Source of the DNA: a virus
Lineage: Duplodnaviria > Caudoviricetes
Direction: 5' to 3' (one strand)
DNA length: 64,000 bases
Virus record (IMG/VR): IMGVR_UViG_3300011116_001229
Every line of letters begins with the position of its first letter. Within the stretch, counting starts at the first letter, position 1. The notes under the pieces were generated by a model. It saw only the letters and a list, made by a program, of their open reading frames with translations. It searched no databases and had not been told where the DNA came from. Of the stretch, positions 17,540 to 48,200 are shown one piece after another. Position numbers and translations under genes: made by a program.

Positions 17540-17836
17540 TTAATTTTCTTCATTATTATCAAAATTTTTGATTATTGCATAAACTGCATCTCTGCAGTCA
17601 GCTATATCTTTTACTAGATCTTTGACAACAGGATCATCAAAAAAGACTTCTGTCTTTGATTTAGCTTCAAGGCGCTTGTGCTTCTCTTCGAGTATTTTTA
17701 AGGATATGTCGAGCTGTTCTTCTAGATCATCAAGCTTGTCTATGATCTGCAGGCTGTTTTTCGTGGATCTAACTAGAAGCGACGTCGATCCAGCAAACAA
17801 GCACGCAAAAACGCAAGCGAGAACAACTGAAATCAT
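17540..17836 (-). CDS. Small membrane-anchored coiled-coil protein
   Basis: Hydrophobic N-terminus (MISVVLACVFACLFAG) followed by heptad-like charged helix. Confidence 0.6.
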   Translation of the reverse strand: MISVVLACVFACLFAGSTSLLVRSTKNSLQIIDKLDDLEEQLDISLKILEEKHKRLEAKSKTEVFFDDPVVKDLVKDIADCRDAVYAIIKNFDNNEEN

Positions 17837-19032
17837 AAAATAAAGCTCAATTCTTCGTCATACATCTTTGAGATAGTAGAAAAATTGTATTGTTGCTTGA
17901 TCTTGGCTGAGAGCTCTGTTGCCCACTCTTTAGGCAGCGAGCTAGATGACTTAAACTTCAATATTTTCTTCTTAAAGTCTTCTTCAACCGGGTTGGCCCA
18001 TCTGGCATTTTGAACAAAAATTTCATTATCTATTCTTGATGGATGCACATTACCAAGATTAAAATCGACACCAACGAATTTGCCCTTTGACATAAAATCA
18101 AGATGCCCAGACCAGTTTGTGGCAATAATTGGTAGACCACTCGCTGCTGCTTCTAGAATCGGCAGTCCGTAGCCTTCGCCTCTTGTTAAAGTCACTAATG
18201 CTTTTATCTGTGGATGTCGATAAAGAGATGCCATCTCAGCATCAGACATTTCACCGTGAAGAAGATAGATCTTGGGTTCTTTTTTCTTCTTAATTTCTAG
18301 CAAGACTGACTTGATAGTGTTCTCAACAATCTGTCTGTCTATCTTAGTATTTCGACCCATGTTTGTCTTAATAACTAGTCCTACATCGTTGTCTTTATTA
18401 AATGTTTCGCAAAACCACTTTATAGTATAGAAGATATTTTTTCTATCATTTTCTGCGTTCTTTCCTGTTATCTGTCCGATCATTAAAAAGTTGAACTGGG
18501 TCTGGAATTTAATATCATCGATGCGTGTAGACGCTGGTTCGAGTATCTCATCTGGGAAAGATTCGGGTATAACTCTAACTTCAGTTGTTAGTTGACCAGA
18601 GCTGCTAAGGACGCTATGACAGAACTTCGAGGGTACAATTACTTTAGTCATTCTATTGCATGCATGCACCCAAGCAGGATTGCAGATATCTGTTTCAACA
18701 ACTGCAGATATGCCAATATTGGTGCTAGACATGCTTGTGTCCCATTCATTTGGTAGCTGAACTTGAACAGTTGCATCGTACTTTTGACCCGTTGGGTCAG
18801 CGGTCTTTTCCATAATTCTACCGATCAAACCCCCAGACAAATCTTTGTTAATTAACCAGGGAGTTGAACCCCAGGGCAAGGCCTGAACGTGAACGTCGAG
18901 ATTAGGCTTTGAAAGGAGCCAGCGAGCAATTTGTCGTGAATGAACTCCATAACCAGACTGAGTCAGTACGGGAGCTCTGAGCAGGACTTTTTTTCTGCTA
19001 CTCATGTTGACAAAAAAGTTGTTATCAAACAT
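17833..19032 (-). CDS. Glycosyltransferase, GT-B fold (GT4-like)
   Basis: TQSGYGVHSR N-terminus; TRGEGYGLPILEAAASGLPIIATNWSGHLDF nucleotide-sugar binding motif. Confidence 0.9.
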   Translation of the reverse strand: MFDNNFFVNMSSRKKVLLRAPVLTQSGYGVHSRQIARWLLSKPNLDVHVQALPWGSTPWLINKDLSGGLIGRIMEKTADPTGQKYDATVQVQLPNEWDTSMSSTNIGISAVVETDICNPAWVHACNRMTKVIVPSKFCHSVLSSSGQLTTEVRVIPESFPDEILEPASTRIDDIKFQTQFNFLMIGQITGKNAENDRKNIFYTIKWFCETFNKDNDVGLVIKTNMGRNTKIDRQIVENTIKSVLLEIKKKKEPKIYLLHGEMSDAEMASLYRHPQIKALVTLTRGEGYGLPILEAAASGLPIIATNWSGHLDFMSKGKFVGVDFNLGNVHPSRIDNEIFVQNARWANPVEEDFKKKILKFKSSSSLPKEWATELSAKIKQQYNFSTISKMYDEELSFIL

Positions 19033-20284
19033 CTAACACCTTCATTTCCCAAGTTGGTGGTTTTGATTCTGGGCTTTTCCAGCTATCGATTAATTTGCTC
19101 AGTGACTTGTCCCATTCAGACACAACATCTTCCATAATATAGTCTCTTTGTGCGTGCTTCATGGCTCTTAGACCGACTTCTCTTCTCTTGTCCGGACCCC
19201 ATGTGAACATCTCCATAAATGCTTTAGAGAGCGTCTCATGTGAGATAAAATCTTCATAGATGTAAGGTATCATAAGGTTTCCTACCATAGACCTTACCTC
19301 AGGATCCAAGGCAATACCATAGTGCTCTCCTGTTTTGTAGTCTTCAACTTGTCGAGTAAGACCACCAGTCTTTATCGAGATCACAGGCTTTCCACACATC
19401 TTTGCTTCAAGAATAGGCAGTCCAAATCCTTCATTTGATGATCTGTTTACGACAGTGTCGCACATATTGTAAAGAATATTCATGTCTTCAAAAGCGATTC
19501 TATCCTTAGAAAAGACGACGCTTTCACGAATTCCAAGCATATCAACTACGCTGTGCAAATTTGTTCCCTCTGGATCGAGAGGATCGCAGTGCATCACAAT
19601 AGAAGCTTTTTGATGACCGTGCTTTTCTTGCAAATCTTTCATAAACATCTTCCAAGACACTAAGATGTCGCTAGTCATCTTCCTTCTTGCATTTCTAGAA
19701 ACATAAAGCGCAGTGAAATGATCGAGTCGCTCGGGCCCTAAAAGCTTCTTCTTAAACTGTTGAACTTGATCATGTGGTAGTTCTTTATAGAGTTCGGTCG
19801 GAACAGCATGAGGAATATAGTTTGTCTTATGCGGAAAGCGCTCTTTGACCATCTCGTATGTAGGATAATTAATGCAGTTGATCAAGTCAGTTGAGTCATA
19901 TAATACGCTATTGTAGTCAGGCCACGGTGGATTATCCCAAAGATGCCAGTATGCGATAGGACAAATTTGATTAATCTCGTCTGCCATCTCCCAGACCCAT
20001 ATGAAGAATCGAGGGTCTGTGAACAGAAACATCGCATCGGGTCTTAGCTGTGCTAAAGTTTTTCTTAAAAGATTTTTATCACCAAATCCATCCGTTGGCT
20101 TGACAATAAAGTCAGGATTAACAACAACAGTTTCGTAATTGTCGTGCTTTACAGCTCCTCCAAAGCATTTGAAGCTATATTTTCCTGTATTGACTAGGCC
20201 ATTTATCAACCACCTAGCTTGAGTACCCACTCCTGAAGTAGAAAGTGGATGGTCTGATAGCATTAAAATTGTCTTTTTTTGCAT
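19025..20284 (-). CDS. Glycosyltransferase, GT-B fold (GT4-like)
   Basis: STSGVGTQ N-terminus; SRNARRK; SSNEGFGLPILEAKMCGKPVI motif. Confidence 0.9.
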   Translation of the reverse strand: MQKKTILMLSDHPLSTSGVGTQARWLINGLVNTGKYSFKCFGGAVKHDNYETVVVNPDFIVKPTDGFGDKNLLRKTLAQLRPDAMFLFTDPRFFIWVWEMADEINQICPIAYWHLWDNPPWPDYNSVLYDSTDLINCINYPTYEMVKERFPHKTNYIPHAVPTELYKELPHDQVQQFKKKLLGPERLDHFTALYVSRNARRKMTSDILVSWKMFMKDLQEKHGHQKASIVMHCDPLDPEGTNLHSVVDMLGIRESVVFSKDRIAFEDMNILYNMCDTVVNRSSNEGFGLPILEAKMCGKPVISIKTGGLTRQVEDYKTGEHYGIALDPEVRSMVGNLMIPYIYEDFISHETLSKAFMEMFTWGPDKRREVGLRAMKHAQRDYIMEDVVSEWDKSLSKLIDSWKSPESKPPTWEMKVLDV

Positions 20285-20323: not shown

Positions 20324-21139
20324 TTAAGTGCAGTGCTCTGTGTTTTTATACTCACACCACATGCATGCGTCTCTATTCTTTATGGCTACTCCTCGCTTCA
20401 CAGAAGTCAACATATTGCTCACTACCTTGAGAGAACGTTTAATTGGTACTTCACCTAGAGGAACTGTGAATAATTCGCAATGTTCACCAGCTTTTGCTGA
20501 TTTCTTCAACAGCACGAACCCGCAACGAACATTCTTAAACGGTACATCAGGGTGCTTTTGACACCAATAATTCTTGTAAAGCGCCAACTGTGATTTCACC
20601 ATTTCATCTGAACGCTTTTCTCTGAACCAACCGCGCACTGTAGTCTTCCAGTCAAGAATCCAGTAGAGTTCTTCTCCGCGCTTGCCTTTGGTTTTAATGA
20701 CACCGTCAATGAATCCCTTAAAAGCATGTGGGTGATTCTCTACTGCTTCGTAGAGCTGGTGTTCTGCATCGACTACTTCCCATTGGGGGAATATTTCATC
20801 AAGAAAATTTGGAACTTCTGCAAGAATTAGAGCTGCTTCTTCCTTTGCTTTTGCGAGCGATGCAGGAGTAAAGTCTGGGTTGTCAGGATGTGATGCCCAT
20901 GCTTTTTCCATGTGCTCATATGCAATCTGAGGTTTCATCTCACGAGTTAAAAGATACTGTTCACAAGATGCATGTACTGCAGTTCCAAAGTCAAGAACCG
21001 GGGAGGGCTTTGACAGATCAATCTTTTTGACGTGCGTTAAATTGTGTCGATATGAGCACTCTTTCCAAAGCTTAACTTCGGAAAAAGAGACGTGAGGTTT
21101 TCCTGTAGGAAGAACGTCAAATGACGTATTTTCTTGCAT
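20324..21139 (-). CDS. PD-(D/E)XK nuclease, Cas4/AddB-like with Fe-S cysteines
   Basis: SFSEV..WKEC, FGTAVH, GFIDGV, ILDWKT, QLALY and C-terminal CMWCEY...HC (1+3 Cys arrangement). Confidence 0.85.
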   Translation of the reverse strand: MQENTSFDVLPTGKPHVSFSEVKLWKECSYRHNLTHVKKIDLSKPSPVLDFGTAVHASCEQYLLTREMKPQIAYEHMEKAWASHPDNPDFTPASLAKAKEEAALILAEVPNFLDEIFPQWEVVDAEHQLYEAVENHPHAFKGFIDGVIKTKGKRGEELYWILDWKTTVRGWFREKRSDEMVKSQLALYKNYWCQKHPDVPFKNVRCGFVLLKKSAKAGEHCELFTVPLGEVPIKRSLKVVSNMLTSVKRGVAIKNRDACMWCEYKNTEHCT

Positions 21140-24572: not shown

Positions 24573-25586
24573 CTATCTTACAATTTCGGCAGTATCTTTT
24601 CTTACTTCGTTACGCCAATATTGTAATAAATCTAACATCGTTTTTTCAAAACTAATCTCAGGTTGCCAACCTGTGTGGCTCTTAAACTTATTTGTGTCAG
24701 GTATCTGAAGATCAGCATCAATGGGCCTAAGCCTATCCGGATCTACGACAACTTGTATGTCTTTAACTGTAGAATTTTTAAGAAGAAAATTTAACATGTC
24801 TCTTACAGAACACGTATAAGAGCCACCAATGTTGTAGTACTCGCCTGCGACAGGATTATTAGTCACAAGCATGTAATATGCTCTAACTGCATCACGAACA
24901 TCTGCCCATGTTCTAAGAGAATCTAGATTACCTACTTTTAAAATAGGCGGTATCTTACCGGCTTCTATTAGCGCAATTTGCTTAGCAAATGAAGATTCAG
25001 CAAAAACATCACCTCTGCGAGGTCCTGTATGTGTAAACATTCTAGTCGTCATGACTCTCATTCCATATGCTTCAGCATAAAATCTTCCAATTAAATCAGT
25101 GCCAACTTTGGAAATTGCGTACGGTGAAGCTGGGTGAAAGTTAACATCTTCGTGAATTGGCAGTTTATCTTTTGAAACTCTTCCAAAGACTTCGGAGCTT
25201 GCGCAGACATGTACGGTAATTTTTTTAAAGTCAATTTCTGAGAGTCTAATTGCCTCTAGCAGGGCGCATGTTCCAATTATGTTGGTCTGCAAAGTCTCAA
25301 GTGGAGAGTCAAAACTAGTCTTTGGATAACTTTGAGCCGCTAAATGAAACACATAGTCTGGTTTGACTTTTTTTATAAGTGACATTAGGCTTGCAAAATC
25401 ATTAAGGTCGGCATTGTGTAGTTCTATCCGATCTTTATCATTTATTCTTCGTGAGAGATGCTCAATATTTTTTGCTGGTTCGAACCATCTCATCATGCCG
25501 TGAATTTCCCAGTCCGTGTTCTCAAGCAAAAAGTCTGCTAAATGTGAGCCGACCATGCCAGTTATGCCTGTAATAATTGCTTTCAA
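24573..25586 (-). CDS. dmhA: GDP-D-glycero-D-manno-heptose 4,6-dehydratase-like (DmhA/WcbK family)
   Basis: HGMMRW, FHLAAQSYPKTSFDSPLETLQTNIIGT, HVCASSEVFG, RMFTHTGPRRGDVF, AKQIALIEAG and RLRPIDADLQ closely match my recollection of Yersinia/Campylobacter DmhA rather than Gmd. Confidence 0.7.
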   Translation of the reverse strand: MKAIITGITGMVGSHLADFLLENTDWEIHGMMRWFEPAKNIEHLSRRINDKDRIELHNADLNDFASLMSLIKKVKPDYVFHLAAQSYPKTSFDSPLETLQTNIIGTCALLEAIRLSEIDFKKITVHVCASSEVFGRVSKDKLPIHEDVNFHPASPYAISKVGTDLIGRFYAEAYGMRVMTTRMFTHTGPRRGDVFAESSFAKQIALIEAGKIPPILKVGNLDSLRTWADVRDAVRAYYMLVTNNPVAGEYYNIGGSYTCSVRDMLNFLLKNSTVKDIQVVVDPDRLRPIDADLQIPDTNKFKSHTGWQPEISFEKTMLDLLQYWRNEVRKDTAEIVR

Positions 25587-27448
25587 GTTAACTCCATCAG
25601 ACCATTAAGATTAAGTGCATCAAATCTCGATTTCCAGTATTCAGAAGAATTTAGATAAGATTTTGCGATAGTATTTCTCTTTTTCGATTCTTCAACATTA
25701 CCAAGTTTTTGGTCAACAACGCTTAGAAATAAGTTAGCCAGCGGATTATCTTTTGTCATTCTATCACAAATGTCAGTTAGAATCATTTTTTTCTTAACAA
25801 GTCTATCTCTGTCTTTTAGCTCCAAAATTGGTGCGTAATTAATCCAATAATCAACTAGCAACCAAATATCGTGAAGCTGTTCTCTAGTTGGTATCACATT
25901 CCAGTCTCCCTCAAAAAGATTAACAAATTTTTCAACTTTATTTTTTTGAAGCTGCTCTTGTTCTCTTTGTTTCTCTCCCTGTCTAACAACAAACAATTTA
26001 GAACCATCACCCTCTTTATTCTTTTTCAAATTGATATCATCGATAAGACCCAATGAAACCATTTCTTCATAAATTTCAGTGGAAGGCAGTGGAGATAAAA
26101 GCTGTATGCCGTACCAGTCAAGTCCAACATCTTGCGCCATCTTGACAGTCTGCATCATTTGGCTCAAGGTCTCATTCGGAAAACCAATTATTAAAAATCC
26201 TCTAGTAAAAATTTGTGGGTACTTCTTTAGAAGATCTCCCACTATGTAATAGTGATGAACTTTAGACGGTTTATGAACAGCTTTTAATATAGAATCGCTT
26301 CCGGACTCTAATCCAAAAGTCATTCCAATGCAACCAGAACGTGCAGCTGACTCTATTAGAGCTGGTGTTTTTGCAGCTGCAGAGGCAATTATTCCATTTG
26401 ATGCACACCATTTTATATTTAAGTTTCTATCAGCCATTTCATTAAAAAGTTGTACGGCTCTTTCTTGATCATAGAACAGATCATCATCTATCCACGTAAC
26501 ATGACCGATTCCATATTTTTCTTTTACTTTTGTTAGCTCATCAATAACTGACTCTATGCTTCTTGCTCTAACACCGAAACCATTAAAATTTCTTACGCTG
26601 CAGAATGAGCATCTCGCTCGACATCCTCTGTTTGACAAAATTGAAGTCGACTTTATCTGTTTGGGCAGCCACGATCTATAAGATCCGACTTCACCTAAGC
26701 TGCTATACAAGCTGAGATCTAGTGAATCATAGTCGGGTATTATGTTTAGATCATCTGCAGTTGGAGTCGCTCTAGAGTCTACAGCGACATACTCACCGTT
26801 AATAATGGTTGCTATTTGGTTTAATCTATTTAAATCGAGTTTTTTGTTTATAACATCAATAAAATCGCAAAAACTGACATCAGACTCATACAAACCTGCA
26901 AAATCAATATTATTACTTTCACCGAGTACAAATTTAGTTGCATTAGTTACATGTACACCGCCAACGATGGTAGGAATCTGAAATTCTTCTTTTGCAAAAT
27001 TAGCAGTTCTTATCAACATTTCATGACCCATAGTAAACATGCATGTTAGGCCTACTAAGTCAGGTTGGAAATTATTTACAGACTGTTTTAAGCTAGACTT
27101 CCAATGATTCTCAGCAAGCTCTCTAGCAGATTCATTATCTTGAATATCACTTCGTCTGTTGATTAGGTCCAAGATTTCAAGATTAAAGTCTATGAGTTTA
27201 ACCTCATATCCTCTATCTCTTAGGGCTTTACAAAGCACAGCTATTCCATAAGGTGGCCATGCGTAATATCTAGAATTTCTTGCTTGTCTTATCTCAAAGT
27301 GCTCAGTGTTAAAAGGCAGGGAATTTACTAATAAAATTTTTCGACATCCATTTTTAAAAGTTGTCTCTATCTTTCCGTAAATGGCTTTTTTAGTTTCAAG
27401 ACTTTCTGGGGTTGCATTAATTTCAAGCTGTTTGAGCTTTTTTAGCAT
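25583..27448 (-). CDS. Cobalamin-binding radical SAM enzyme (class B methyltransferase-like)
   Basis: N-terminal B12 domain (PPYGIAVL, PDLVGLTCMF, VGGVHVT); SNRGCRARCSFC (CxxxCxxC); DDDL; GLESGS; LIIGFPNET. Confidence 0.9.
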   Translation of the reverse strand: MLKKLKQLEINATPESLETKKAIYGKIETTFKNGCRKILLVNSLPFNTEHFEIRQARNSRYYAWPPYGIAVLCKALRDRGYEVKLIDFNLEILDLINRRSDIQDNESARELAENHWKSSLKQSVNNFQPDLVGLTCMFTMGHEMLIRTANFAKEEFQIPTIVGGVHVTNATKFVLGESNNIDFAGLYESDVSFCDFIDVINKKLDLNRLNQIATIINGEYVAVDSRATPTADDLNIIPDYDSLDLSLYSSLGEVGSYRSWLPKQIKSTSILSNRGCRARCSFCSVRNFNGFGVRARSIESVIDELTKVKEKYGIGHVTWIDDDLFYDQERAVQLFNEMADRNLNIKWCASNGIIASAAAKTPALIESAARSGCIGMTFGLESGSDSILKAVHKPSKVHHYYIVGDLLKKYPQIFTRGFLIIGFPNETLSQMMQTVKMAQDVGLDWYGIQLLSPLPSTEIYEEMVSLGLIDDINLKKNKEGDGSKLFVVRQGEKQREQEQLQKNKVEKFVNLFEGDWNVIPTREQLHDIWLLVDYWINYAPILELKDRDRLVKKKMILTDICDRMTKDNPLANLFLSVVDQKLGNVEESKKRNTIAKSYLNSSEYWKSRFDALNLNGLMELT

Positions 27449-27466
27449 GTTGAATCCTCCAGTTAA

Positions 27467-28903
27467 TTAGTCTTCTCTAATCCCTAGATCTTTTTTTCTC
27501 AAGTCATCAGAATAATATTTATCAAAAACTCTGCACACAATATTGGTAAATTGTCTACCTGACTCAGTGAGACGTATTTGATTTTTTTCAATGACTAAAA
27601 TCTCGTCTTCTTCAAAAGTTTTTATTTTTAACATTTCGTCGCTAAAGTAGCTTTGAAAATTAATTTTATGTGCTTCTTCAATAGATGAAAAATTAATTTC
27701 AAAATAATTTCTTATTTGCTGTATTACATCTTTTCTTACGAGGTCATCAGCTGTTAATTCATGCTCTCTATAGATAGGAAAACAGTTTGACAACACTGCG
27801 CTAGTATAATCTGACATGTCATAGAAGTTTTGAAAATAAGCATTGCCAAGAGTAGACTCACTACTTATTCCGAGACCAATGATGTTGTTATACTCGCCGG
27901 GTGTAACACCCATTGAATTCCAGTAGACCTTTTTTTGATCAACTGCTTTCGCAACATCATCAGAAGGTTTAGCAAAATGATCGTAGCCAGTTCGAACATA
28001 TCCTCCATCAGTTAACACATCTTGTGCAACACTAAAGAGTTCTTTTCTTTCAAAGAAGTCAGGAAGTTTAGTTGGTCTACCATCTTTGCCATCTATCATG
28101 AATTTCTGCTGAGGTGCAAAAACAGGAGAGTAATGAAGATAATTTAAGCAAATTCTTTCAGGAGAAAGTCGAACGCATTCTTTTGCTGTTAGTTTAATTG
28201 AGTCAACAGTTTGGTGTGGTAAACCACAGATAATATCAAAATTGATTCCATTCTTAAATAAGTCTCTTATCTCATGCGTAAGCAGGTCTTCAATTAACTC
28301 AACTGGCTGGATTCTATTAACGGCATTTTGGACTTTTGGATCAAAGTCTTGAATTCCAAAAGAAATTCTATTAATTCCTTTGCTGTGATAATACCTCATT
28401 TTTTGAACATCAACTCTTCGAGGATCAATTTCTATTGCAAATTCTCTCAGCCGTTTTATGTCCACAATCTTTTCAAGCTTCTGGCAAAGTATATCAAATT
28501 CTGTTTCCTCTATAAAAGTTGGAGATCCTCCGCCGAGGTGAATTTCTTTAACGTCTAATTTAATTTTATTATCAGCGAGGAAATTAGAAAAATAATCAAT
28601 TTCTTTGAATAAAATTTCCATGTAGTCTTTTACTTTTTGATAGTCATTGGTAATAGACATATGACACGTACAGAAATAACAAAGCTGTTGGCAGTACGGC
28701 ATGTGCACATACAGCATTGATGATAGCTTATTCTGTTTGCTTAGTGTGATGAGTGAGTTCTTAAATCCAATATCATTTTTATTTTGACTCCAAAATCTTT
28801 TATGTGGGTAATGAGTATACATGAACGCGCTGTGCTCATATTTCTTAGCTAGCACTGTCAGTCTAGTCTTTTCAAGTCTCTCGTCACTGCTCTTAAACAA
28901 CAT
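27467..28903 (-). CDS. HemN-like radical SAM enzyme (coproporphyrinogen III oxidase/class C methyltransferase family)
   Basis: YTHYP, LYVHMPYCQQLCYFC, IHLGGGSPT, EIDPR, NRISFGIQDF, INFDIICGLPHQT, GYDHFAKP. Confidence 0.85.
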   Translation of the reverse strand: MLFKSSDERLEKTRLTVLAKKYEHSAFMYTHYPHKRFWSQNKNDIGFKNSLITLSKQNKLSSMLYVHMPYCQQLCYFCTCHMSITNDYQKVKDYMEILFKEIDYFSNFLADNKIKLDVKEIHLGGGSPTFIEETEFDILCQKLEKIVDIKRLREFAIEIDPRRVDVQKMRYYHSKGINRISFGIQDFDPKVQNAVNRIQPVELIEDLLTHEIRDLFKNGINFDIICGLPHQTVDSIKLTAKECVRLSPERICLNYLHYSPVFAPQQKFMIDGKDGRPTKLPDFFERKELFSVAQDVLTDGGYVRTGYDHFAKPSDDVAKAVDQKKVYWNSMGVTPGEYNNIIGLGISSESTLGNAYFQNFYDMSDYTSAVLSNCFPIYREHELTADDLVRKDVIQQIRNYFEINFSSIEEAHKINFQSYFSDEMLKIKTFEEDEILVIEKNQIRLTESGRQFTNIVCRVFDKYYSDDLRKKDLGIRED

Positions 28904-28935
28904 AGCTATCTCCCACTAAAAATCGACTTATAGTT

Positions 28936-28964
28936 AATTTATTCCGATAGAGAAAAATGTGCAA
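28936..28964 (-). promoter_or_regulatory. Putative sigma70-like promoter (TTGCAC-17-TAAATT) for the radical SAM pair, with SD GGGAG downstream
   Basis: Minus strand reads ttgcac atttttctctatcggaa taaatt ... gtgggagatagct ATG. Confidence 0.45.
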
Positions 28965-28967
28965 AAG

Positions 28968-29723
28968 TCATCTTAAGTTAATTTCTCTTCTTTTTGCATT
29001 TTGACCAATAGCAAAATTCGATCCCTTTGCAATGTAGCAGAAGGAATGCCATGGTCTCGATCTTTCTGAGGTATTTGGATAAGAACCATGTACACAATGA
29101 CCATGAAGAAATACAACTGATGATTTAGAAATTTCTAGGTCGACTTTTTCAGTCTTAAAATCATCTGGTAGAGTACAATTACTACCTGGGTTTTTATCGT
29201 GGTCTTCTCTAAAACTTTTTTGAGGTTGAGCGTCCAATAATCCCAACTTATGCGAGCCAGGATATACAAAAATTGTGCCATTTTTTACATCTGTATCTCT
29301 AAGAAACCAGTTAGCTGTTATATAGTTGCCATGCTTATCACCAGGATACCAGCCATCTTGATGAATACTCCATGCTTGACTCGCGTATCTAGAGTATGCT
29401 TCTTTAAAGATAAACTGGCTGCTTAAGCCTATCATTTCTTTGCCCGATAAACTCTCTAACGCAGAGACTAGCTTAAAATTTTTCATAGCTGATAAAAAAT
29501 AGTTGCAAGTTTCTTCTATTTCTTCTAATGTTATATTTGATTTTGGTCTCTCGTCTTGTGCTATTAAATCTTCATAACGGTCAGGATTAACAATTGCAGC
29601 GAAGTCAATATTTGCATGTCTTCTTATTAGTCTATTGCACTGATCAGCATCATCTTTAGTAAAGATATCATCTACGACTAGAAAGCCATTTTCATGAAAA
29701 AAATCAATCTGCTGTTTTAACAT
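28968..29723 (-). CDS. Phytanoyl-CoA dioxygenase (PhyH)-family 2OG-Fe(II) oxygenase
   Basis: FFHENGFLVV, WSIHQDG (HxD), YPGSHK, HGSYPNTSERSR (distal His, Arg). Confidence 0.85.
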   Translation of the reverse strand: MLKQQIDFFHENGFLVVDDIFTKDDADQCNRLIRRHANIDFAAIVNPDRYEDLIAQDERPKSNITLEEIEETCNYFLSAMKNFKLVSALESLSGKEMIGLSSQFIFKEAYSRYASQAWSIHQDGWYPGDKHGNYITANWFLRDTDVKNGTIFVYPGSHKLGLLDAQPQKSFREDHDKNPGSNCTLPDDFKTEKVDLEISKSSVVFLHGHCVHGSYPNTSERSRPWHSFCYIAKGSNFAIGQNAKRREINLR

Positions 29724-36087: not shown

Positions 36088-36089
36088 AA

Positions 36090-36764
36090 TTAAAAGTTAC
36101 CTTCATGAGTTAAAACAATCGTGTTATTAGACATATTAGAAAAAACTTTTAACAATTTTTTTAAGACATCTTTGGTTACAATATCGCCGGGACCTGCAAC
36201 ATTAATGTCATACTCTGTTAAGAGGCCTCCTCTTAAAAACATAATGTGTGAATCAGTTTGTTCTAATAGTCTTTGCATATGTTGCATGCTATCAATGTGA
36301 TGAACAGCTATTTTTTTTCCACCAAGATTATAGAAATTACTCAATCCTTTGACTGGTTCATCGATCCAAATACATTCACTTGCTTTTGGTAATTCATTTG
36401 ACTCATCTTCATAAGGCTGACCTGTTCTTCCATATTTGTCTTCAAGTCTAACAAGATCGTGCTTATTGACAGGTGTTTCAATTTCGAATATGCATAAATT
36501 AGAACCAATTGCATGTGTAGAATGAAAAAGTCCTTTTCTTATCATTGTCTTTTCTTTTGTAGATAGACTTAACTTATTAGATAAGAAAGAAACTTCTGCA
36601 TCTCCATCAATTACCATCAGGCCCGTAGTTTTATTTGGGTGACAGTGCATTGAAGTTTTTTGGTCCCTTAAAATACTAAGAAACCATAAAGCTACATTTT
36701 CATTTTCATATACTAGATATTCATAGCCCCATGGTTTCTTAACAATATTCGTCTTATAACTCAT
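36090..36764 (-). CDS. Cupin-domain protein (KPWG type)
   Basis: VKKPWGYEY, TSMHCHPNK, GLFHST, EIETP. Confidence 0.7.
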   Translation of the reverse strand: MSYKTNIVKKPWGYEYLVYENENVALWFLSILRDQKTSMHCHPNKTTGLMVIDGDAEVSFLSNKLSLSTKEKTMIRKGLFHSTHAIGSNLCIFEIETPVNKHDLVRLEDKYGRTGQPYEDESNELPKASECIWIDEPVKGLSNFYNLGGKKIAVHHIDSMQHMQRLLEQTDSHIMFLRGGLLTEYDINVAGPGDIVTKDVLKKLLKVFSNMSNNTIVLTHEGNF

Positions 36765-36765
36765 C

Positions 36766-37293
36766 TCACACCATGCTGATCGCTTTTTTCATCCAAGGTC
36801 CCATGTGTTTATAATGCGGAGATGTAACAATATTGTTAGAGACAACAAAGGGCGCATCAACGTATATTGCTCCTGCATTGTTAATATCATCCTTAATACT
36901 ATAGTACCCAGAGATCTGTCTTCCCTCAACAACTTTTGAAGAAATTAAAAGTTGAGCACCATGACAAATACAAGCTATGACTTTTTTTCTCTTATCCCAC
37001 TCATTAATAAAGTCTAGGACATCTTTTTCTTGTCTAAGATACTCTAGAGCCTTGACTCCACCAGGAATTACAAGTAAGTCATACTTTAAAAAGTTTTCTC
37101 TTTTGCTTGCATCAGACAGATCACTTAGCAGATGAGTTCCGTTCATGTACGTTCCTAATATGCCATAAAATCTTCCTTGTTTGTTAGACATAATTTCAAC
37201 ATCATACTCATCTTCTGTTAGTCGATAGTATGGATAGATGACCTCATGGTCTTGATAACTTTCATATGTCAATATTAATGCTTTTTTATTCAT
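36766..37293 (-). CDS. DJ-1/PfpI family protein
   Basis: YQDHEVIYPYYRL, LLVIPGG, ACICHGAQLL (nucleophile elbow Cys-His), NIVTS. Confidence 0.9.
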   Translation of the reverse strand: MNKKALILTYESYQDHEVIYPYYRLTEDEYDVEIMSNKQGRFYGILGTYMNGTHLLSDLSDASKRENFLKYDLLVIPGGVKALEYLRQEKDVLDFINEWDKRKKVIACICHGAQLLISSKVVEGRQISGYYSIKDDINNAGAIYVDAPFVVSNNIVTSPHYKHMGPWMKKAISMV

Positions 37294-37937
37294 TTTCCCT
37301 CATCGTGTTTGTAAACAAGTAGCGTATCGTCTCCCCTACCAGAGTCTTTAGAGAAATCAACTCTCTCAAATTGATTTAAAAAATTTTCAGGATAGACGTT
37401 TTCAGGATAAATGTCTTCAATAACATAGACGCCGCCTGGTTTTAGTTTGCTCTTGAGTATAGAAAAGTTACTAATTTGATTATCGGCTATGTGTGAGCCA
37501 TCGTCGATTATAAGATCAAATTTTCTACTTCCTAGTGGCTCATATGTTAGTAGACTTTCATGATTGCCTGAAATTAGTTTTAAGTTAGGATAGTTGCTTG
37601 GATCTATCCATAATCGATCTAAATTTTGGTCAACACCGCAAATAAAAGCTTGTGGTAATGATTCACACCACGCAGCAACTGATCCGCCAAAATATGTTCC
37701 TAGCTCCATTATTGAAAAGTCTTCTTCTTTTTGACTTCCAAGTAAATTTGTTATTAGGCTTGCGTAAAATTCACCATAAGAGTGGTATAGATTTTTGTCA
37801 GTATAATGCCTTTTTCTATTAGCACATTCTATAGAATGACATCCATTCGGTCTAGCTCCACAAGATCCTTCTTGATAAAATCTATCGGAGTAAAAGTTTA
37901 GTCTTTCTAAAATCTTGTCTTTTAATGTAATAGTCAC
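37290..37937 (-). CDS. Class I SAM-dependent methyltransferase, sugar O-methyltransferase-like
   Basis: MELGTYFGGS, GVD, FDLIIDDGSH, LKPGGVYVIED. Confidence 0.8.
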   Translation of the reverse strand: MTITLKDKILERLNFYSDRFYQEGSCGARPNGCHSIECANRKRHYTDKNLYHSYGEFYASLITNLLGSQKEEDFSIMELGTYFGGSVAAWCESLPQAFICGVDQNLDRLWIDPSNYPNLKLISGNHESLLTYEPLGSRKFDLIIDDGSHIADNQISNFSILKSKLKPGGVYVIEDIYPENVYPENFLNQFERVDFSKDSGRGDDTLLVYKHDEGK

Positions 37938-38335
37938 CAGCTTACCTCCCAGTCTTTAAAGTCTGCTGCTAAACAGTCAATTTTATAATCTTTTCTTCCG
38001 CCTGCCGACTCTTGAATCTTATTCTTGGCTGTATTTCGTATTCCATTAAGACCATGAGTAAGCTCTAGATTATTACCATCTTTAATGCCTTTTCTATAGT
38101 TTGACTCATTATGCCATATGTGAAGATTCATTTGTGAAAGTACAACAATAGCTCTAACGTCTTCTGCAGAGAGGACTATATTTGAATCATTTAAGCATTG
38201 TTGTATGTCATAAACAATGTCTTTAATTTCTTCTGAATATTCTTTTTTATGTTCAGTAATAAAGACTTCTTTTAGCTGAAGAATTGAGAGTCTATCAATT
38301 AGCTCTGATAGTGTAGGCAGATATCTTCTATTCAT
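37934..38335 (-). CDS. Conserved small helical protein (DUF6165-like)
   Basis: TLSELIDRLSILQLK resembles the 'GELIDKxxILEIK' family often found in glycan loci. Confidence 0.55.
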   Translation of the reverse strand: MNRRYLPTLSELIDRLSILQLKEVFITEHKKEYSEEIKDIVYDIQQCLNDSNIVLSAEDVRAIVVLSQMNLHIWHNESNYRKGIKDGNNLELTHGLNGIRNTAKNKIQESAGGRKDYKIDCLAADFKDWEVSW

Positions 38336-38372
38336 GTTTTTCTTGAATATAACAAGTTAGATAGAAAGTGTA

Positions 38373-39158
38373 TTAGAGATAAGACTGTTTTAAGTCTAGT
38401 AATGTATCAGAGAGAAGTTGATCGTATGAATAAAGAATTTTTTCTGAGCTAAGATACGTTAATTTTTTTTGAGAGCTTTGTCTAGACTCAGTGACATATT
38501 CTTCATAGTTCATATTAAATTTTTTATAGAGATCTTTAGCATACTCTCTGACATTAAAATAGGTACCGGATCCTATAATCTGTGATTGTTTTGTAATTTC
38601 AGCTTGACTAGCAACCCATTTAGCGTGCAAAATATCTCTATTCCAGTCTAGATTTCCAACTTCTATCTTTTTTTTACAAAGCAATGACTGAAAAATCTTA
38701 CCCATTAAGAAATTAGAACTTCTGTATCTTGAATTAAAATTGAAAGGATATAAAATTATTACATTTTCTATTTCTTTTAAAATTTTAGCAGCTTTGTATT
38801 TTGAAATAGTGTAATAGTTTTCTTCAAAGTTAAAGTCCGTATTTAAGCTAATAGCTCCGGAACAATTACTCCAAAGTTCTACAGTTGAAAAATATACAAT
38901 TTCTTTTGCATTAATTTTTTTTGCAACTTCTAGTGTTAAGTCAACATTAATTCTATTAAACTCTTCTTTAAAAGCTATATCATGCGCATGTACTGTTCTT
39001 TGTTCTGCAAAACAGATATAAACTCTTTCCCAATTAGCCTGATAAATATGATTGGGTATATTTCTAGAAGATACTCTTACTAGTTCTGGGGACATGTAAT
39101 TGGATAGCTGAGAGCTTTCACCAATTATTAAGTTATTTTTAAATAGACTGCTACGCAT
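38373..39158 (-). CDS. Atypical NAD-dependent epimerase/dehydratase
   Basis: Start moved to Met 39158 (ATGCGTAG overlap). LIIGESSQL degenerate Rossmann motif, YFST, YTISKY (YxxxK), GNLDWNRDILH. Confidence 0.65.
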   Translation of the reverse strand: MRSSLFKNNLIIGESSQLSNYMSPELVRVSSRNIPNHIYQANWERVYICFAEQRTVHAHDIAFKEEFNRINVDLTLEVAKKINAKEIVYFSTVELWSNCSGAISLNTDFNFEENYYTISKYKAAKILKEIENVIILYPFNFNSRYRSSNFLMGKIFQSLLCKKKIEVGNLDWNRDILHAKWVASQAEITKQSQIIGSGTYFNVREYAKDLYKKFNMNYEEYVTESRQSSQKKLTYLSSEKILYSYDQLLSDTLLDLKQSYL

Positions 39159-39912
39159 GAAATCCATTATAGCCAGATTTTGGATAGTAGTCTCTAAACT
39201 GATGAACAAGCTTGTGACTGCTAGTTCTCCAGCTTGAATCGCGCAAACATTCGACAACTTCTGGATTATGAACAGAATGATATCCGGCTGCAGCTAAAAA
39301 TACTGGTAGCCAAATATCACTATGATGTACTCTTTCATCTGTCATGAGAAGATCATGAAATAGTTCTTTATTTTTATAGACAACATCAACACCTTTTAAA
39401 AAAGATTTTGAAGAAAAAATTTGTGGATATCCCCACCATTCAAAATTTGCTGATCCCGGTATTTTACTTAAAAATTTTTGAATACAGCTTCCATCGGGTC
39501 TAGACGCGTAATGATTAACGTGCGGCTGCAACATAGAAACACTATTTGGGATAGTTAATTTTCCACGAAGCATAACGTCAGGTTGTGAGCATAACATGTA
39601 TTCTGTATTGCACTTAATAGTTGCTTCTACGTGCCTTGAAATTACAATATCAAGATAGTCTTCAATTTTTTTTTGAATTTCTACTTGTCTAAAATTGTTA
39701 GAATTGACATTTCTCACAAGCCAGCTGGCCATGGCGTCATCTACAACTTTACATGTTAGACTACTGTACTTCTCTTGTAGGTATGAAAAATCGTCTCCCT
39801 CAGAGTAGATAAATGCAGGTCTATTGGGATAAAACTCATAAAATGTGCTTATAGAAAAATCTACAGCTTTACCTTCTTTGTAGGCTGTAAAGAACATACC
39901 TAGATCTGTCAT
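39151..39912 (-). CDS. Hypothetical protein, possible GT-A glycosyltransferase
   Basis: N-terminal FTAYKE...FYEFYP..PAFIYSEG and QPDVML resemble GT-A topology; context within the glycan locus. Confidence 0.4.
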   Translation of the reverse strand: MTDLGMFFTAYKEGKAVDFSISTFYEFYPNRPAFIYSEGDDFSYLQEKYSSLTCKVVDDAMASWLVRNVNSNNFRQVEIQKKIEDYLDIVISRHVEATIKCNTEYMLCSQPDVMLRGKLTIPNSVSMLQPHVNHYASRPDGSCIQKFLSKIPGSANFEWWGYPQIFSSKSFLKGVDVVYKNKELFHDLLMTDERVHHSDIWLPVFLAAAGYHSVHNPEVVECLRDSSWRTSSHKLVHQFRDYYPKSGYNGFHA

Positions 39913-45260: not shown

Positions 45261-45931
45261 TTGACTCCATATACCATTCTATACCACGCTGACACAATTT
45301 TTGGTACGCTAGGGTTATAATTTGGATTTGGGACGTGTTTATATCTGACCAGCGGCTCGTCTAGATTAGCAAACTTATACCACGGTATTGATCTAGACCA
45401 TAGGTCCAAATCTTCGGCAAATGGAAAGAGATCGAAGTATCCAGCACATTTATCTAAAATCTTTTTCTTAAAGACCACGCTAGGGTGCCCAATTGAATTT
45501 TCTCCGGAAAGAAGACTAGAGATTATGTGACTATGCTCAATCGGATAATTGGTCGTTCTTATAAACTTGTTATTAGCATCGACAACATTTAATTGAGTAC
45601 CTACAATGTCAACATCAGAATTCTTGTCAAAGAATTCTAATTGCTTTTTTAGTTTATTTGAAAGCCAAACATCGTCTGCATCTTGACGGGCAATAAAGTC
45701 ACCTTTGCAATTTCTTAGACCCATATTGAGTGCAGGAACTATTCCTGGTTCAGAACGGAGAATTTTGATCCTATCATCTTTTATATCTTGAATAACTTCT
45801 TCTGTGTTATCAGTTGTTCCATTGACAATACAGAGAATTTCTAGATCTTGTATTTCTTGAGTTAATACTGATCGTATTGATTCCTGCACAGTACTGGCAG
45901 CATTTCTGACCGGTATGACTACAGATATCAC
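45257..45931 (-). CDS. Glycosyltransferase family 2
   Basis: ISVVIPVRN, ALNMGL, IARQDADD, HPSV, AEDLDLW. Confidence 0.9.
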   Translation of the reverse strand: MISVVIPVRNAASTVQESIRSVLTQEIQDLEILCIVNGTTDNTEEVIQDIKDDRIKILRSEPGIVPALNMGLRNCKGDFIARQDADDVWLSNKLKKQLEFFDKNSDVDIVGTQLNVVDANNKFIRTTNYPIEHSHIISSLLSGENSIGHPSVVFKKKILDKCAGYFDLFPFAEDLDLWSRSIPWYKFANLDEPLVRYKHVPNPNYNPSVPKIVSAWYRMVYGVK

Positions 45932-46290
45932 GATCTTCTCTTTATCTCCCCAATGAAAGGAGAGGCAAATGGAGTGCCGTTCATCATGGTTGCAAGAAGA
46001 GCTAGTTCTTTTGTTTCAAGATTATTTAGTTTAGCTCTTTGTGTAAAGATGCTTGGATCAAGCTGTTGATTACCGTTAATTGTAACGGCATCATAGTACA
46101 TTTGAGCTAGAAAATTAACTGACTCATTGCAAAGCGGTGTTTGTGCTTCTTTAAAAATTTCTGTCAAAGAAAAAAATATATCTTGATAAATCTCACTACA
46201 GACAGAAGTATTTAATTTTTCGCCCTTGCGTCTCGCTAGACGATCAGTTATTAAAGTCGAGATTGTCTCGTGAAGCTTGTTATCTTTCAT
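45928..46290 (-). CDS. Hypothetical protein (120 aa)
   Basis: Coupled ORF (ATGA overlaps); no recognisable motif. Confidence 0.65.
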   Translation of the reverse strand: MKDNKLHETISTLITDRLARRKGEKLNTSVCSEIYQDIFFSLTEIFKEAQTPLCNESVNFLAQMYYDAVTINGNQQLDPSIFTQRAKLNNLETKELALLATMMNGTPFASPFIGEIKRRS

Positions 46291-48200
46291 TTCTTTGGCT
46301 CCGAAACGTCAACAGTAATATGAGGAGTTCTTTGACCTTGCCATTTTCTATGCCAGATCCAGCCTCCTGTTGAGTCCTTTAGTTCTTTTGCTCGTGCTTC
46401 TATCATCTCATCTGTAACTTGAGACCATGGTAAGTCAAACATCATATTTGTATCAGCAGAATCTTCAAGAGATTTATTATACAGAGAATTCCAGTGTTTT
46501 GTCCAGTAATTCTTGTAAAGCTTCATCTTTCTTGAGATGTCGTACCACGAGTAATGATGTACTCCTGGCAGGCTCTTGATGACAGAATTAAACCATGTTC
46601 TATACTGCAATAAAGCTGATGGCTCACCCGTACATGCTGACTGTCTCATCCTCTCTGAATCCGGTGTGTGAAAAGTTACATGAGGCAATCTTTCACCCGT
46701 CTCATTGTGAATCATATCACAGCCATCAGTACCCTCTGCGGCATATAGCTGGCCATTCTCATCAAATTTACGAAGATCAACTGGTATGCCGTGCGTAATG
46801 TGCGAGAGATTTCTACTGAGTCTCCACTTCCATGGCTGAATGTCGCACCTTACTTTATCAGGTCCTCCCCAATATTCAATGACAGGCAAAGACACTATAT
46901 CAACCTTTGAAGGTATCTTCTTGCACAGTTCAATGATCTTAGTTGCATCATCTTCATGCACAATTTCATCAGAATCCATTTGCCAACAGAAGTCACCGGT
47001 GCACATTGATCTTGCTTCTGCCTTTTGTGCTCCATCAAAAACAGCATGTCGCTGATGCGACCAGTCTCTCACGACTTGTTTGACTTTTAATTTTTCATTG
47101 TTTTGTGACAAATCATTTAGTTTTTCCCAAGTGCCGTCTGTTGACCCACCATCAACTACACAAACTTCGTCACAGAAACGAAGCATTGACTCAATACACT
47201 CAATAAATGGATAATCTTGCTTGATGCAATTGTAAGCGGTTGTATAACCACTAATCTTGGGAACATGATTAATGACTTTTTCAATGCACTTCCAAAAAAG
47301 TGAAGGTGCAGTAGAAAGATACTCATTGATTGAACTTATATCATCAGTACTAAACCATTCTTCTGAAGCGTGCTGAACGTTATCATTGAGTTGCAACTTA
47401 CATCCTAAAAGCTTTGCTTCAATAACCATCCGTGGGCATGTATCGGCTCCTGCAGGAAGATAAACGAAACCCTCAGATTGTGAAAGTTTTTCAAGAAGTT
47501 TATCATAGGATAAATTCCAAACTACTTCAAACGTCTTCTGATTGTTCTCGCACCATTCTTTAGCTGCTTGTGCACCCTTAACCCATGAATCCGACCCAAG
47601 GACTATCCAGCCTTTTCTGTCGACAGAGTTTTTCTTAGTTAACTTAGAGAGATGGTCTATGTAGTCTAGAGTAGTTTTCGAAAAAACACTGGATAATACT
47701 ACATTGTCTTTTTCTGACAAAAAGGGGAACAGCGTGTGATATCGCTGTTTTTGCTTCTCAGACATCCACCAGAGAGACTGGGCGCCGTAGTAGAATGCCG
47801 ATATTAATTTACCATTAATCTTGTCATGACAATCGCAGGGTTGACTAGTCGCTGCCTCGTGTTTCTCTGGCGATCGAAATCGACAGAATTTATAATCATA
47901 TTCAAGTATTGAATACTTTAGATTTGCAACAATGCTTGGTATAAGCTCTGGATTGAGTTGTGCAAAATTTCCAAAGATCCAATGCTTCTGTGCGCCCTGT
48001 GTCAAGGTTGACAGATTAACTTTTGATGAGTGAACTTTTTGTATCTTAAGAGGAGAAGCTTCTATTAGAGCTTCGCTAGTGAGTTCTGCGCCACCGACAT
48101 AATCTTCTACAAATAAATCAGCAACAAATATAATTTGTGTGTCTGGATCTAGCTGAGCATTTGGATTAACAAATATAGCTTCTTTAAAATCTGTCACCAT
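46287..48200 (-). CDS. Two-domain glycosyltransferase (GT-B-like N-terminus + GT2 C-terminus)
   Basis: GGAELT and DTCPRMVIEAKLLGC (GT-B-like) fused to SGYTTAYN...VVDGGSTDGT...WQMDSDE (GT-A). SD GAGG upstream. Confidence 0.8.
   Translation of the reverse strand: MVTDFKEAIFVNPNAQLDPDTQIIFVADLFVEDYVGGAELTSEALIEASPLKIQKVHSSKVNLSTLTQGAQKHWIFGNFAQLNPELIPSIVANLKYSILEYDYKFCRFRSPEKHEAATSQPCDCHDKINGKLISAFYYGAQSLWWMSEKQKQRYHTLFPFLSEKDNVVLSSVFSKTTLDYIDHLSKLTKKNSVDRKGWIVLGSDSWVKGAQAAKEWCENNQKTFEVVWNLSYDKLLEKLSQSEGFVYLPAGADTCPRMVIEAKLLGCKLQLNDNVQHASEEWFSTDDISSINEYLSTAPSLFWKCIEKVINHVPKISGYTTAYNCIKQDYPFIECIESMLRFCDEVCVVDGGSTDGTWEKLNDLSQNNEKLKVKQVVRDWSHQRHAVFDGAQKAEARSMCTGDFCWQMDSDEIVHEDDATKIIELCKKIPSKVDIVSLPVIEYWGGPDKVRCDIQPWKWRLSRNLSHITHGIPVDLRKFDENGQLYAAEGTDGCDMIHNETGERLPHVTFHTPDSERMRQSACTGEPSALLQYRTWFNSVIKSLPGVHHYSWYDISRKMKLYKNYWTKHWNSLYNKSLEDSADTNMMFDLPWSQVTDEMIEARAKELKDSTGGWIWHRKWQGQRTPHITVDVSEPKK

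Follow-up and report, generated by a model that had tools for sequence, protein, structure and literature searches.

Large islands of sugar and glycosyltransferase (GT) genes have been known in big phages since P-SSM2, and to our knowledge nobody has shown what they decorate. P-SSM2 carries a 15-gene cluster (PMC7824862), the cyanophage S-SCSM2R encodes 13 GTs (PMC12801897), and the published reading of P-SSM2-type clusters is that they act on the host surface (PMC7824862; PMC12801897). Here, we describe an island of this kind in a 64,000-nucleotide (nt) stretch of phage DNA (IMG/VR record IMGVR_UViG_3300011116_001229; from here on, the window, meaning that whole stretch), in which 36 minus-strand open reading frames (ORFs) fill positions 17833-48200 between head-maturation genes and sigma/baseplate genes. 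By gene content, the locus belongs to the known class of jumbo-phage sugar/GT islands; new are its size and chemistry, its lineage, the placement of conserved anchors around an exchanged cassette, and its link to cultured phages. The reading that we favor, tentatively, is that the locus is a self-contained cytoplasmic island for oligosaccharide assembly and that its acceptor would most likely be one or more virion proteins.

Comparison of the window with related phages identified conserved ends around a hypervariable middle. Among the 29 related loci with 10 kb sequenced after the gene for a 637-amino-acid (aa) two-module GT (the core GT, which forms the left anchor), the core GT is present in all 29 and the adjoining 120-aa gene in 21, while the cassette genes of the window are present in 2. 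The 384 ORFs downstream of the core GT in these loci fall into 162 families, 96 of which are unique to one locus. The right end (a PD-(D/E)XK nuclease gene, two GT4 genes, a 98-aa gene, and the sigma gene) is kept in the relatives G001, G002, and G005 with 61-74% identity, i.e., at the level of core genes, and the same range applies to the GT4 pair in G002 and G005. Between these ends, G002 has genes for a DegT aminotransferase, an ATP-grasp enzyme, a methyltransferase, a UDP-glucose-dehydrogenase-like enzyme, and other GTs, and G005 has yet another gene set. Relative to G001, the nucleotide identity is 90-97.5% in the cassette and 74-85% in the flanks, including the core GT, GT2, GT11, and GT4 pair genes. 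Because the cassette is this similar to G001 while the flanks are ~80% identical, we conclude that the ~21-kb cassette was exchanged recently between phages. It contains most of the sugar-synthesis and tailoring genes together with the genes for GT4-315, an HtrL_YibB protein, and a 342-aa GT-like protein. The gmd-fcl pair is an indel relative to G001; it is absent there and present in G005, while G002 has gmd alone. Exchange patterns of this type are known from O-antigen and capsule loci, and the O-antigen-like layout of anchors plus cassette implies diversifying selection on the glycan. In the large relatives, GT1/GT2 matches lie almost exclusively within their version of the locus, at a length of 16-23 kb; with 30 kb, the locus in the window is the largest version seen.

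The nuclease is syntenic with the GT4 pair in G001, G002, and G005, in a marine phage, and in two cultured phages, i.e., Flavobacterium phage vB_FspM_immuto (47,964-59,944; from here on, immuto) and Microcystis phage Mel-JY01. In both cultured phages, the nuclease-GT4-GT4 module is kept, with additional GT and sugar genes immediately after its GT4 pair. The GT4 proteins match those of the cultured phages with E values of 7e-52 and 6e-50, and Rhodothermus phage RM378 has a single GT4 homologue. The presence of the anchor module in immuto and Mel-JY01 makes the acceptor testable at the bench.

The marine phage mentioned above is a distant one (L099; ENA contig k141_178795, 175,726 bp) in which the backbone of the locus occupies 13 kb (5464-19243). 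The gene order there is PD-(D/E)XK nuclease, GT4, a 1080-aa GT1+GT9+GT2 fusion, sulfotransferase, GT1, two cytidylyltransferase-like genes, PfkB, cupin, and sigma factor (Sigma70_r2). As in the window, a set of PfkB, nucleotidyltransferase, and cupin genes is found in L099, where it adjoins the sigma gene.

A preceding sequence-only reading of the window had described about 35 co-oriented, mostly coupled genes, among them 9-10 GTs without membrane anchors, directly upstream of the genes for a late sigma factor and a baseplate operon and lacking genes for a phosphoglycosyl transferase, Wzx, Wzy, or ABC export, and had taken the DNA to be from a phage rather than a cellular capsule locus. Our analysis bore out each of these points. 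Approximately 25 of the 35 junctions between the 36 ORFs overlap or have a gap of ≤6 nt; using Pfam and structure models, we found at least nine GT modules, with the 342-aa protein resembling viral GTs by language-model features only; and the locus directly precedes the gene for a gp55-like sigma factor (16668) and gp25/gp6-like baseplate genes. In a hydrophobicity (Kyte-Doolittle) scan, no cluster enzyme had a true membrane segment. Apparent hydrophobic N-termini at 31359 and 43777 reflect over-extended ORF starts, the third is in the 98-aa gene at 17540, and the hydrophobic N-terminus of the GT6 is its first beta strand and not a membrane anchor.

The window has a GC content of ~36%. Its source element is a freshwater jumbo phage of ~300 kb, because the IMG/VR relatives measure 213-309 kb (five large contigs, G004-G008, of which three are ≥90% complete) and one of them, G005, is a complete genome of 297,894 bp whose assembly ends overlap by 123 bp. 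Statements on whole genomes are based on these relatives rather than on the full genome of the window phage itself. Near-identical sequences were found in 20 runs; these come from 9 studies that sampled lakes, freshwater, drinking water, and estuaries and include viral-fraction metagenomes. The baseplate region had no megablast match among GenBank phages, and the core GT had no tblastn match in 50,697 GenBank phage records; based on the latter, we regard the lineage as unrelated to those of the cyanophages with sugar clusters. We also considered moraphages, a group defined with PolB (PMC12619734), as the lineage; they probably constitute another group.

In the core GT, an N module (approximately residues 20-310) with a GT4-like GT-B fold and a Cys/His cluster is followed by a C module (approximately residues 315-635) with a GT-A/GT2 fold, and both modules are also known as separate proteins of ~300 aa. 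We identified 2194 homologues of the core GT at E < 1e-5, the best 120 of which are all ≥63% identical, and 48 IMG/VR loci carry it. The AlphaFold (AF2) models had predicted local distance difference test (pLDDT) scores of 94.7 (whole protein) and 94.2 (N module). By fold, the N module matched sucrose-phosphate synthase (Z 20.6), BshA (19.8), Gtf3 (16.9), T4 alpha-GT (16.4), and chlorovirus B736L (16.3), with many generic GT4 enzymes scoring Z 17-20 compared to the 16.4 of T4 alpha-GT, while the N-module profile had no match among PDB sequences. The best Foldseek matches of the C module were the glycocin S-glycosyltransferases SunS and ThuS, followed by the chondroitin polymerase K4CP and then by the teichoic-acid GTs RmlT, TarS, and TarP. 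For GT4-419, the best match among PDB sequences was the chlorovirus GT B736L. The 120-aa protein had no Pfam match and no usable match in the language-model (Atlas) search. A GT11 and GT6 pair extends Gal-terminated oligosaccharides in the systems known for these families, and the set of GT modules, including this pair, fits a long branched glycan.

Based on Pfam, NCBIfam, and PDB-sequence searches, the locus encodes a GDP-L-fucose pair, a heptose module with a split HldE, and enzymes for further sugars (Table 1), with matches including a DegT-family enzyme and five short-chain dehydrogenases/reductases (SDRs) beyond Gmd/Fcl. The ColD-type dehydratase has a GHH motif in which the catalytic His is retained in place of the usual Lys, and together with the Fcl/ColC-like reductases it constitutes a predicted route to a colitose-type 3,6-dideoxyhexose. 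These matches, and that to a methyltransferase, are in agreement with the fucose, 3,6-dideoxy, and methylated sugars named in the sequence-only reading; the deoxy-heptose and branched sugars also named there are suggested by neighboring enzymes, and the pair of thiamine pyrophosphate (TPP)-dependent E1 subunits would make the branched sugar by the same reasoning. The breadth, described there as far beyond that of typical phage GT sets, is large but precedented by S-SCSM2R and P-SSM2. From its position, the trio of a PhyH-family dioxygenase, HemN, and a B12-binding radical S-adenosylmethionine (SAM) enzyme (25583..29723) may have a role in glycan synthesis. Separately, we note that the HemN protein (27467-28903) could be the product of an auxiliary metabolic gene, or else a radical-SAM methyltransferase of the HemN-like type with a sugar as its substrate.

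Table 1. Features of the window, in order of position
Position	Strand	Feature	Basis
2-17507	-	Large LamG-domain proteins, gp6-/gp25-like baseplate wedge proteins, gp55-like late sigma factor	Pfam/phrog matches
16659 down to 2	-	Baseplate genes after sigma gene	gp25-/gp6-like matches
16668..17507	-	gp55-like late sigma factor, directly downstream of sugar locus	phrog_234 E 6.6e-7
17540..17836	-	Conserved 98-aa protein, one N-terminal hydrophobic segment, coiled-coil-like tail	Hydrophobicity scan; kept in G001, G002, G005
17833..20284 (genes at 19025, 17833)	-	Pair of GT4-family GTs, 419 aa + 399 aa, right anchor	Pfam
20324..21139	-	PD-(D/E)XK (Cas4/RecB-like) nuclease, first gene of right anchor	PF12705 E 1.8e-17
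21171-22145	-	Gmd, GDP-L-fucose pair	PF16363, 423 bits
22142-23071	-	Fcl-like synthase, GDP-L-fucose pair	Fcl 237 bits
23001..44300	-	Exchanged cassette, ~21 kb, approximate edges	Nucleotide identity to G001
23071-23436	-	Cupin of heptose module	
23429-23878	-	Heptose-1-P adenylyltransferase (split HldE)	rfaE domain II E 2.8e-34, below equivalog cut-off
23796-24569	-	Heptose-7-P kinase (split HldE)	rfaE domain I E 1.1e-41, below equivalog cut-off
24573-25586	-	Gmd-like 4,6-dehydratase of heptose module	
25583-27448	-	B12-binding radical-SAM methyltransferase-like enzyme	Pfam
27467-28903	-	HemN equivalog, oxygen-independent coproporphyrinogen oxidase	349 bits vs 325-bit NCBIfam cut-off
28968-29723	-	PhyH-family dioxygenase	Pfam
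29831-30796	-	Further SDR	Pfam/NCBIfam
30783-31358	-	Short SDR	Pfam/NCBIfam
31359 to ~32333	-	Fcl/ColC-like SDR	Pfam/NCBIfam
32326-33507	-	ColD-type pyridoxamine 5'-phosphate (PMP)-dependent 3-dehydratase	ColD structure 2gms, E 1e-60
33512-33994	-	RmlC-like epimerase	Pfam/NCBIfam
33991..39912	-	Tailoring block, nine genes	Pfam, NCBIfam
33991-34902	-	TPP-dependent E1 beta, in tailoring block	
34875-35708	-	TPP-dependent E1 alpha, in tailoring block	
within 33991..39912	-	Unknown 253-aa protein, divergent SDR, unknown 133-aa protein, class I methyltransferase, DJ-1/PfpI (36766)	
within 33991..39912	-	Mannose-6-P-isomerase-like cupin, HAD-like 128-aa protein	
39917-40945	-	342-aa GT-like protein	Language-model features only (Atlas), viral GT clusters at 0.97-0.99
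40952-41620	-	Unknown 222-aa protein	
41642-41998	-	EcbF/BcbF-like capsule phosphatase	NCBIfam/Pfam
42021-42836	-	HtrL_YibB-family protein	Pfam
42833-43780	-	GT4-type GT	Pfam
43777-44502 by called start	-	GT6, called gene 241 aa	Pfam E 8.4e-17
44499-45260	-	GT11, alpha-1,2-fucosyltransferase type	Pfam E 3.9e-31
45257-45931	-	GT2	Pfam E 1.6e-29
45928..46290	-	120-aa protein, 4-nt overlap with core GT gene end	In 21/29 related loci; 64-66% identical in G002, G005
46287..48200	-	Core 637-aa two-module GT, left anchor	Pfam GT2 at residues 332-442
48283-64000	+	Prohead protease, helicase, PhoH, large unknown proteins	

Genes for export and initiation of a surface polysaccharide are lacking throughout the lineage. 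Profiles for Wzx (PF01943), Wzy_C (PF04932), Bac_transf (PF02397), WecA-type (PF00953), and ABC2_membrane (PF01061) proteins had no match in any of the five large relatives, while positive controls were detected, and Wzx and Bac_transf, the two families tested in the cultured relatives, were found in neither of the two. Using Pfam, no initiating phosphoglycosyl transferase was identified among the window proteins; neither the window nor the G001 and G002 clusters encode a multi-pass protein; and a scan of every ORF of the complete G005 genome revealed no multi-pass protein of the flippase, polymerase, or phosphoglycosyl transferase type. The sole strongly hydrophobic large ORF of G005, which is 1818 aa in length (222518-227974, minus strand) with approximately ten hydrophobic segments in residues 688-1029, matched none of the Wzx, Wzy_C, Bac_transf, WecA-type, and ABC-2 models; it may encode a tape-measure or ejection protein. 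The window proteins include neither a GT9 heptosyltransferase (PF01075) nor a Kdo transferase, and a GT9 domain is present in the 1080-aa fusion GT of L099. By all of its defining features, the locus is not a Wzx/Wzy or ABC surface-polysaccharide locus.

We suggest that the phage enzymes would make activated sugars from host precursors, i.e., GDP-fucose, a GDP-linked colitose-type 3,6-dideoxyhexose, and a nucleotide-heptose, as well as epimerized, C-branched, or methylated derivatives. The anchor GTs (the core GT and the GT4 pair) would recognize a conserved acceptor and attach the inner sugars to it, and the GTs of the cassette region (GT2, GT11, GT6, GT4, HtrL-like, and others) would add variable outer sugars, giving rise to a strain-specific "glycotype." The virion protein or proteins would receive the glycan in the cytoplasm, either ahead of assembly or while it proceeds, as is the case for chloroviruses, mimiviruses, and mycobacteriophages. 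The acceptor is probably phage intrinsic and not DNA, because the module sits in cultured phages without a thymidylate-synthase-type route to hydroxymethylcytosine and no sugar adducts are reported for the DNA of immuto. A virion acceptor fits the solubility of the enzymes, the lack of export genes throughout the lineage, an enzyme set suited to a long glycan, and the place of the locus among morphogenesis genes; by analogy, it also fits the traits shared with chloroviruses and mimiviruses, i.e., the Gmd/Fcl pair, multi-module GTs, and clade-specific clusters. Moreover, cytoplasmic GTs that glycosylate peptides or proteins (SunS/ThuS and Gtf3/GtfC) are among the best fold matches of the core enzyme. 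The sequence-only reading had also proposed a cytoplasmic acceptor, most plausibly a virion protein; this is still the best single guess, whereas the argument that it drew from the missing export genes leaves room for the host surface.

Among the proteins encoded in the window, the motif [ST]G[ST] is 3-4.5x over-represented in three distal virion proteins (ORFs 2-3631, 4694-8236, and 8253-9743, with 18, 14, and 6 occurrences compared to 4.1, 3.1, and 1.9 expected) and nearly absent elsewhere. Two of the three carry LamG domains (PF13385), and the motif usually follows a hydrophobic residue in LamG/lectin-like beta-rich regions. Of the 14 positions in the 1180-aa protein, 11 and 9 are retained by orthologues that are 57% and 52% identical, respectively, while in the 496-aa protein the positions turn over in orthologues and the count stays at 5-6. 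We considered [ST]G[ST] as a "sequon" and rejected it, as it is inseparable from a structural motif of LamG-like beta-rich domains.

Several observations weigh against a virion acceptor. The [ST]G[ST] enrichment may be structural and is compatible with a virion glycan without being diagnostic of it; both the glycoprotein and the acceptor motif are predictions from genes. The structure models that match SunS/ThuS and Gtf3/GtfC also match TarP, TarS, RmlT, BshA/MshA-type enzymes, and T4 alpha-GT (Z 16.4), and phage DNA GTs resemble these fold classes (bioRxiv 10.1101/2023.12.21.572611). The evidence from the cultured relatives comes from proteins that are just 24-35% identical. Hypervariability and lateral exchange are what an arms race over DNA modification or host receptors would produce, and the reason for a virion glycan to diversify is less obvious. 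Also, from its position upstream of the late sigma gene, the locus may be transcribed before the late genes. Finally, the lineage encodes a cytosine-specific hydroxymethylase and thereby a potential DNA acceptor in the form of 5-hydroxymethylcytosine (5hmC).

The alternative that survives best, although we consider it unlikely, is that a host lipid, either lipid A-core or a host-primed undecaprenyl-phosphate intermediate, is the acceptor on which soluble or peripheral GTs assemble the glycan, and that host MsbA, Wzx, or O-antigen ligase exports the product, so that superinfection is blocked or progeny are prevented from re-adsorbing. GTs for lipooligosaccharide are peripheral proteins without membrane anchors, and their product is flipped by host MsbA; the missing export genes are, therefore, compatible with a host-surface glycan. 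The published reading of P-SSM2-type clusters points the same way, as do the lipopolysaccharide- or capsule-like enzymes of the locus (split HldE, HtrL_YibB, EcbF/BcbF-like phosphatase, ColD, GT11, and GT6), and hypervariability with cassette exchange is expected of surface antigens. However, neither the large relatives nor, for the families tested there, the cultured phages encode the phosphoglycosyl transferase, flippase, Wzy_C, or ABC-2 permease searched for, and the window proteins lack a GT9 heptosyltransferase and a Kdo transferase. Moreover, phages of Bacteroidota and phages of Cyanobacteria both have the anchor GTs, and the inner-core structures of these hosts differ; sharing of anchor GTs between phages with hosts of different phyla fits a phage-encoded acceptor better than a host lipid. 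The core GT is also as conserved as replication and head proteins.

It is less likely still that the block is a synteny block of more than one system, e.g., with the GT4 pair and the nuclease serving one target (DNA or a conserved protein) and the cassette another (virion fibers or the host surface). In support of such a split, anchors and cassette have different evolutionary histories, and the operon-like packing is broken by intergenic gaps of 39, 31, 64, 107, and 37 nt. The sequence-only reading had assigned all genes of the block to a glycan factory; this applies to most of them, but the PD-(D/E)XK nuclease (20324), the HemN equivalog (27467), and DJ-1/PfpI (36766) have no obvious glycan role, as a split would predict. 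Also, an identical 10-mer, TAATATACGA, occurs twice in the window (17519-17528 and 20288-20297, minus strand; ~0.1 exact matches expected by chance), just upstream of the sigma-factor gene and of the GT4-419 gene. It may be a promoter or translation signal, with two copies being too few for a promoter class; scans for sigma-70 promoters and terminators gave counts at or near the level of shuffled sequences. Against a split, the genes share one orientation and mostly overlap, each relative examined has a glycan cassette between the same anchors, and further GT and sugar genes directly follow the GT4 pair of the cultured relatives.

Finally, the phage could replace cytosine by 5hmC, with the locus or its conserved GTs glycosylating this base, the cassette varying the sugars in response to modification-dependent restriction, and the PD-(D/E)XK nuclease degrading unmodified DNA. 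The sequence-only reading had kept DNA as the alternative acceptor, and we keep it too; it is more serious than was assumed there, as all five large relatives (in which we searched, rather than in the genome of the window phage) have a thymidylate-synthase (TS)-family gene. The G005 copy (L094:1207-2217, minus strand) is closest to the CMP hydroxymethylase MilA (E 9e-42) and has Asp at the position of E. coli TS N177, which points to cytosine specificity; because of this MilA-like enzyme, the lineage probably makes 5hmC. We note as a separate observation that the hydroxymethylase gene of G005 adjoins a gene for a nucleoside diphosphate (NDP)-sugar SDR. Described phage GT clusters put mono- to trisaccharides of hexose, N-acetylhexosamine (HexNAc), or heptose on 5hmC and may adjoin structural genes (bioRxiv 10.1101/2023.12.21.572611), and the heptose-activation module plus GT-B enzyme of the window parallels one of them. 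In T4, the alpha-GT gene is 1.7 kb from gene 55 and adjoins the 46/47 nuclease genes; in the relatives, the conserved GTs are nearly confined to this locus. In contrast, immuto, which has the homologous nuclease-GT4-GT4 cluster, has only a canonical ThyA with Asn (NQRSVD...PFN motif), and no TS-family gene was found in Mel-JY01, which also has the cluster. In published liquid chromatography with UV and mass spectrometric detection (LC-UV-MS), the DNA of immuto had canonical dA, dC, and dT and carried fdPreQ1 in place of dG; sugar adducts are not reported (PMC10516641). No sequence or profile similarity to T4 alpha-/beta-GT was found for the GT4s, the 342-aa protein, or the N module, and Pfam identified no cytosine-C5 methyltransferase or TET-like gene product among the cluster proteins; a Tet_JBP search gave no match but was uninformative, as control genomes gave none either. 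Isoelectric points (6.1 for T4 alpha-GT and 9.05 for beta-GT) do not separate DNA GTs from other GTs. A set of at least nine GT modules, including GT11 and GT6, is far beyond any DNA glycan of which we are aware. We estimate that a hexasaccharide on every C of a genome with 36% GC would add ~50% to the packaged mass and, as a weak argument, the DNA assembles readily from many ordinary shotgun libraries. On balance, DNA is the least probable of these acceptors.

Returning to a virion acceptor, we raise with due reserve the idea that jumbo phages abundant in freshwater, as well as their cultured Flavobacterium and Microcystis cousins, have a serotype-like "glycotype" locus, and that particles of tailed phages are glycosylated as elaborately and as variably as those of chloroviruses and mimiviruses. 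If so, common aquatic tailed phages would join giant eukaryotic viruses and actinophages in having complex glycosylation that varies between strains, which would matter for adsorption, grazing, particle stability, and phage typing. Were the acceptor instead DNA or the host surface, the system would be the most elaborate of its kind known.

Outside the locus, the least conserved structural gene is that for an 849-aa protein of the baseplate operon (12152-14701), which is 53% identical in G001 compared to ~88-90% for its neighbors, is not present in G002 or G005, and may be a host-range determinant. In G002, a 289-aa ORF with four hydrophobic segments lies about where this gene would be, between the homologues of its two neighbors. 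On the other side of the locus, public gene calls for L027, a contig identical to the window, include a 67-aa Hc1 histone-like protein (PF07432; ~53434-53637, plus strand) and a 92-aa Sigma70_r4 protein (53940-54218, minus strand), both encoded between the helicase and PhoH genes.

Among described systems, the locus resembles the sugar clusters of the jumbo cyanophages P-SSM2, S-SCSM1, and S-SCSM2R (PMC7824862; PMC12801897) in its SDR paralogues, cupins, PfkB kinase, HIGH-type nucleotidyltransferase, and many GT families, as well as in a gene content that is polymorphic between related phages; the function is predicted there, as it is here. It differs in being larger and contiguous (36 genes, 30 kb, and at least nine GT modules), in belonging to an unrelated freshwater lineage, and in adding colitose-type, TPP-branched, and radical-SAM chemistry, and the layout of conserved anchor GTs around a laterally exchanged cassette is absent from the descriptions of the cyanophage clusters in those two papers. 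Phage DNA glycosylation (T4 alpha/beta-GT and the 5hmC clusters; bioRxiv 10.1101/2023.12.21.572611) also relies on soluble GT-A/GT-B enzymes with TarP-like and BshA/MshA-like folds, some clusters have a heptose-activation module, and the window lineage likewise encodes a cytosine hydroxymethylase. However, the DNA-glycosylation clusters are small, their products do not exceed trisaccharides, and genes for methyltransferase/TET or hydroxymethylase enzymes are linked to them, whereas the conserved module of the window locus is also found in phages without a hydroxymethylase gene. With bacterial O-antigen and capsule loci, the locus shares fucose, colitose, and heptose genes, a GT11+GT6 pair as in blood-group-like O-antigens, and conserved flanks around an exchanged hypervariable center; unlike these loci, neither it nor its relatives have an initiating phosphoglycosyl transferase, flippase, polymerase, chain-length regulator, or ABC transporter.

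The mycobacteriophage virion-glycosylation system reportedly includes a methyltransferase, too. It also uses phage-encoded GTs, whose action on capsid or tail proteins would take place in the cytoplasm (Freeman et al. 2023, cited in PMC12619734); these systems reportedly comprise 2-4 genes without nucleotide-sugar synthesis and, in contrast to the window locus, have been shown experimentally. The glycosylation systems of giant viruses (PBCV-1 capsid glycans and Megavirinae fibril glycans; PMC5408694; PMC9614988; PMC10117803) likewise have a virus-encoded GDP-mannose dehydratase and fucose synthase, soluble and partly multi-domain cytoplasmic GTs, no lipid-carrier/ER-type machinery, and clade-specific clusters for rare bacterial-type sugars. 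They differ from the window locus, which is from a tailed phage with a bacterial host, in that their particle glycan is demonstrated, while that of the phage is predicted from genes. By analogy, the locus would work most like the autonomous glycosylation machinery of giant viruses.

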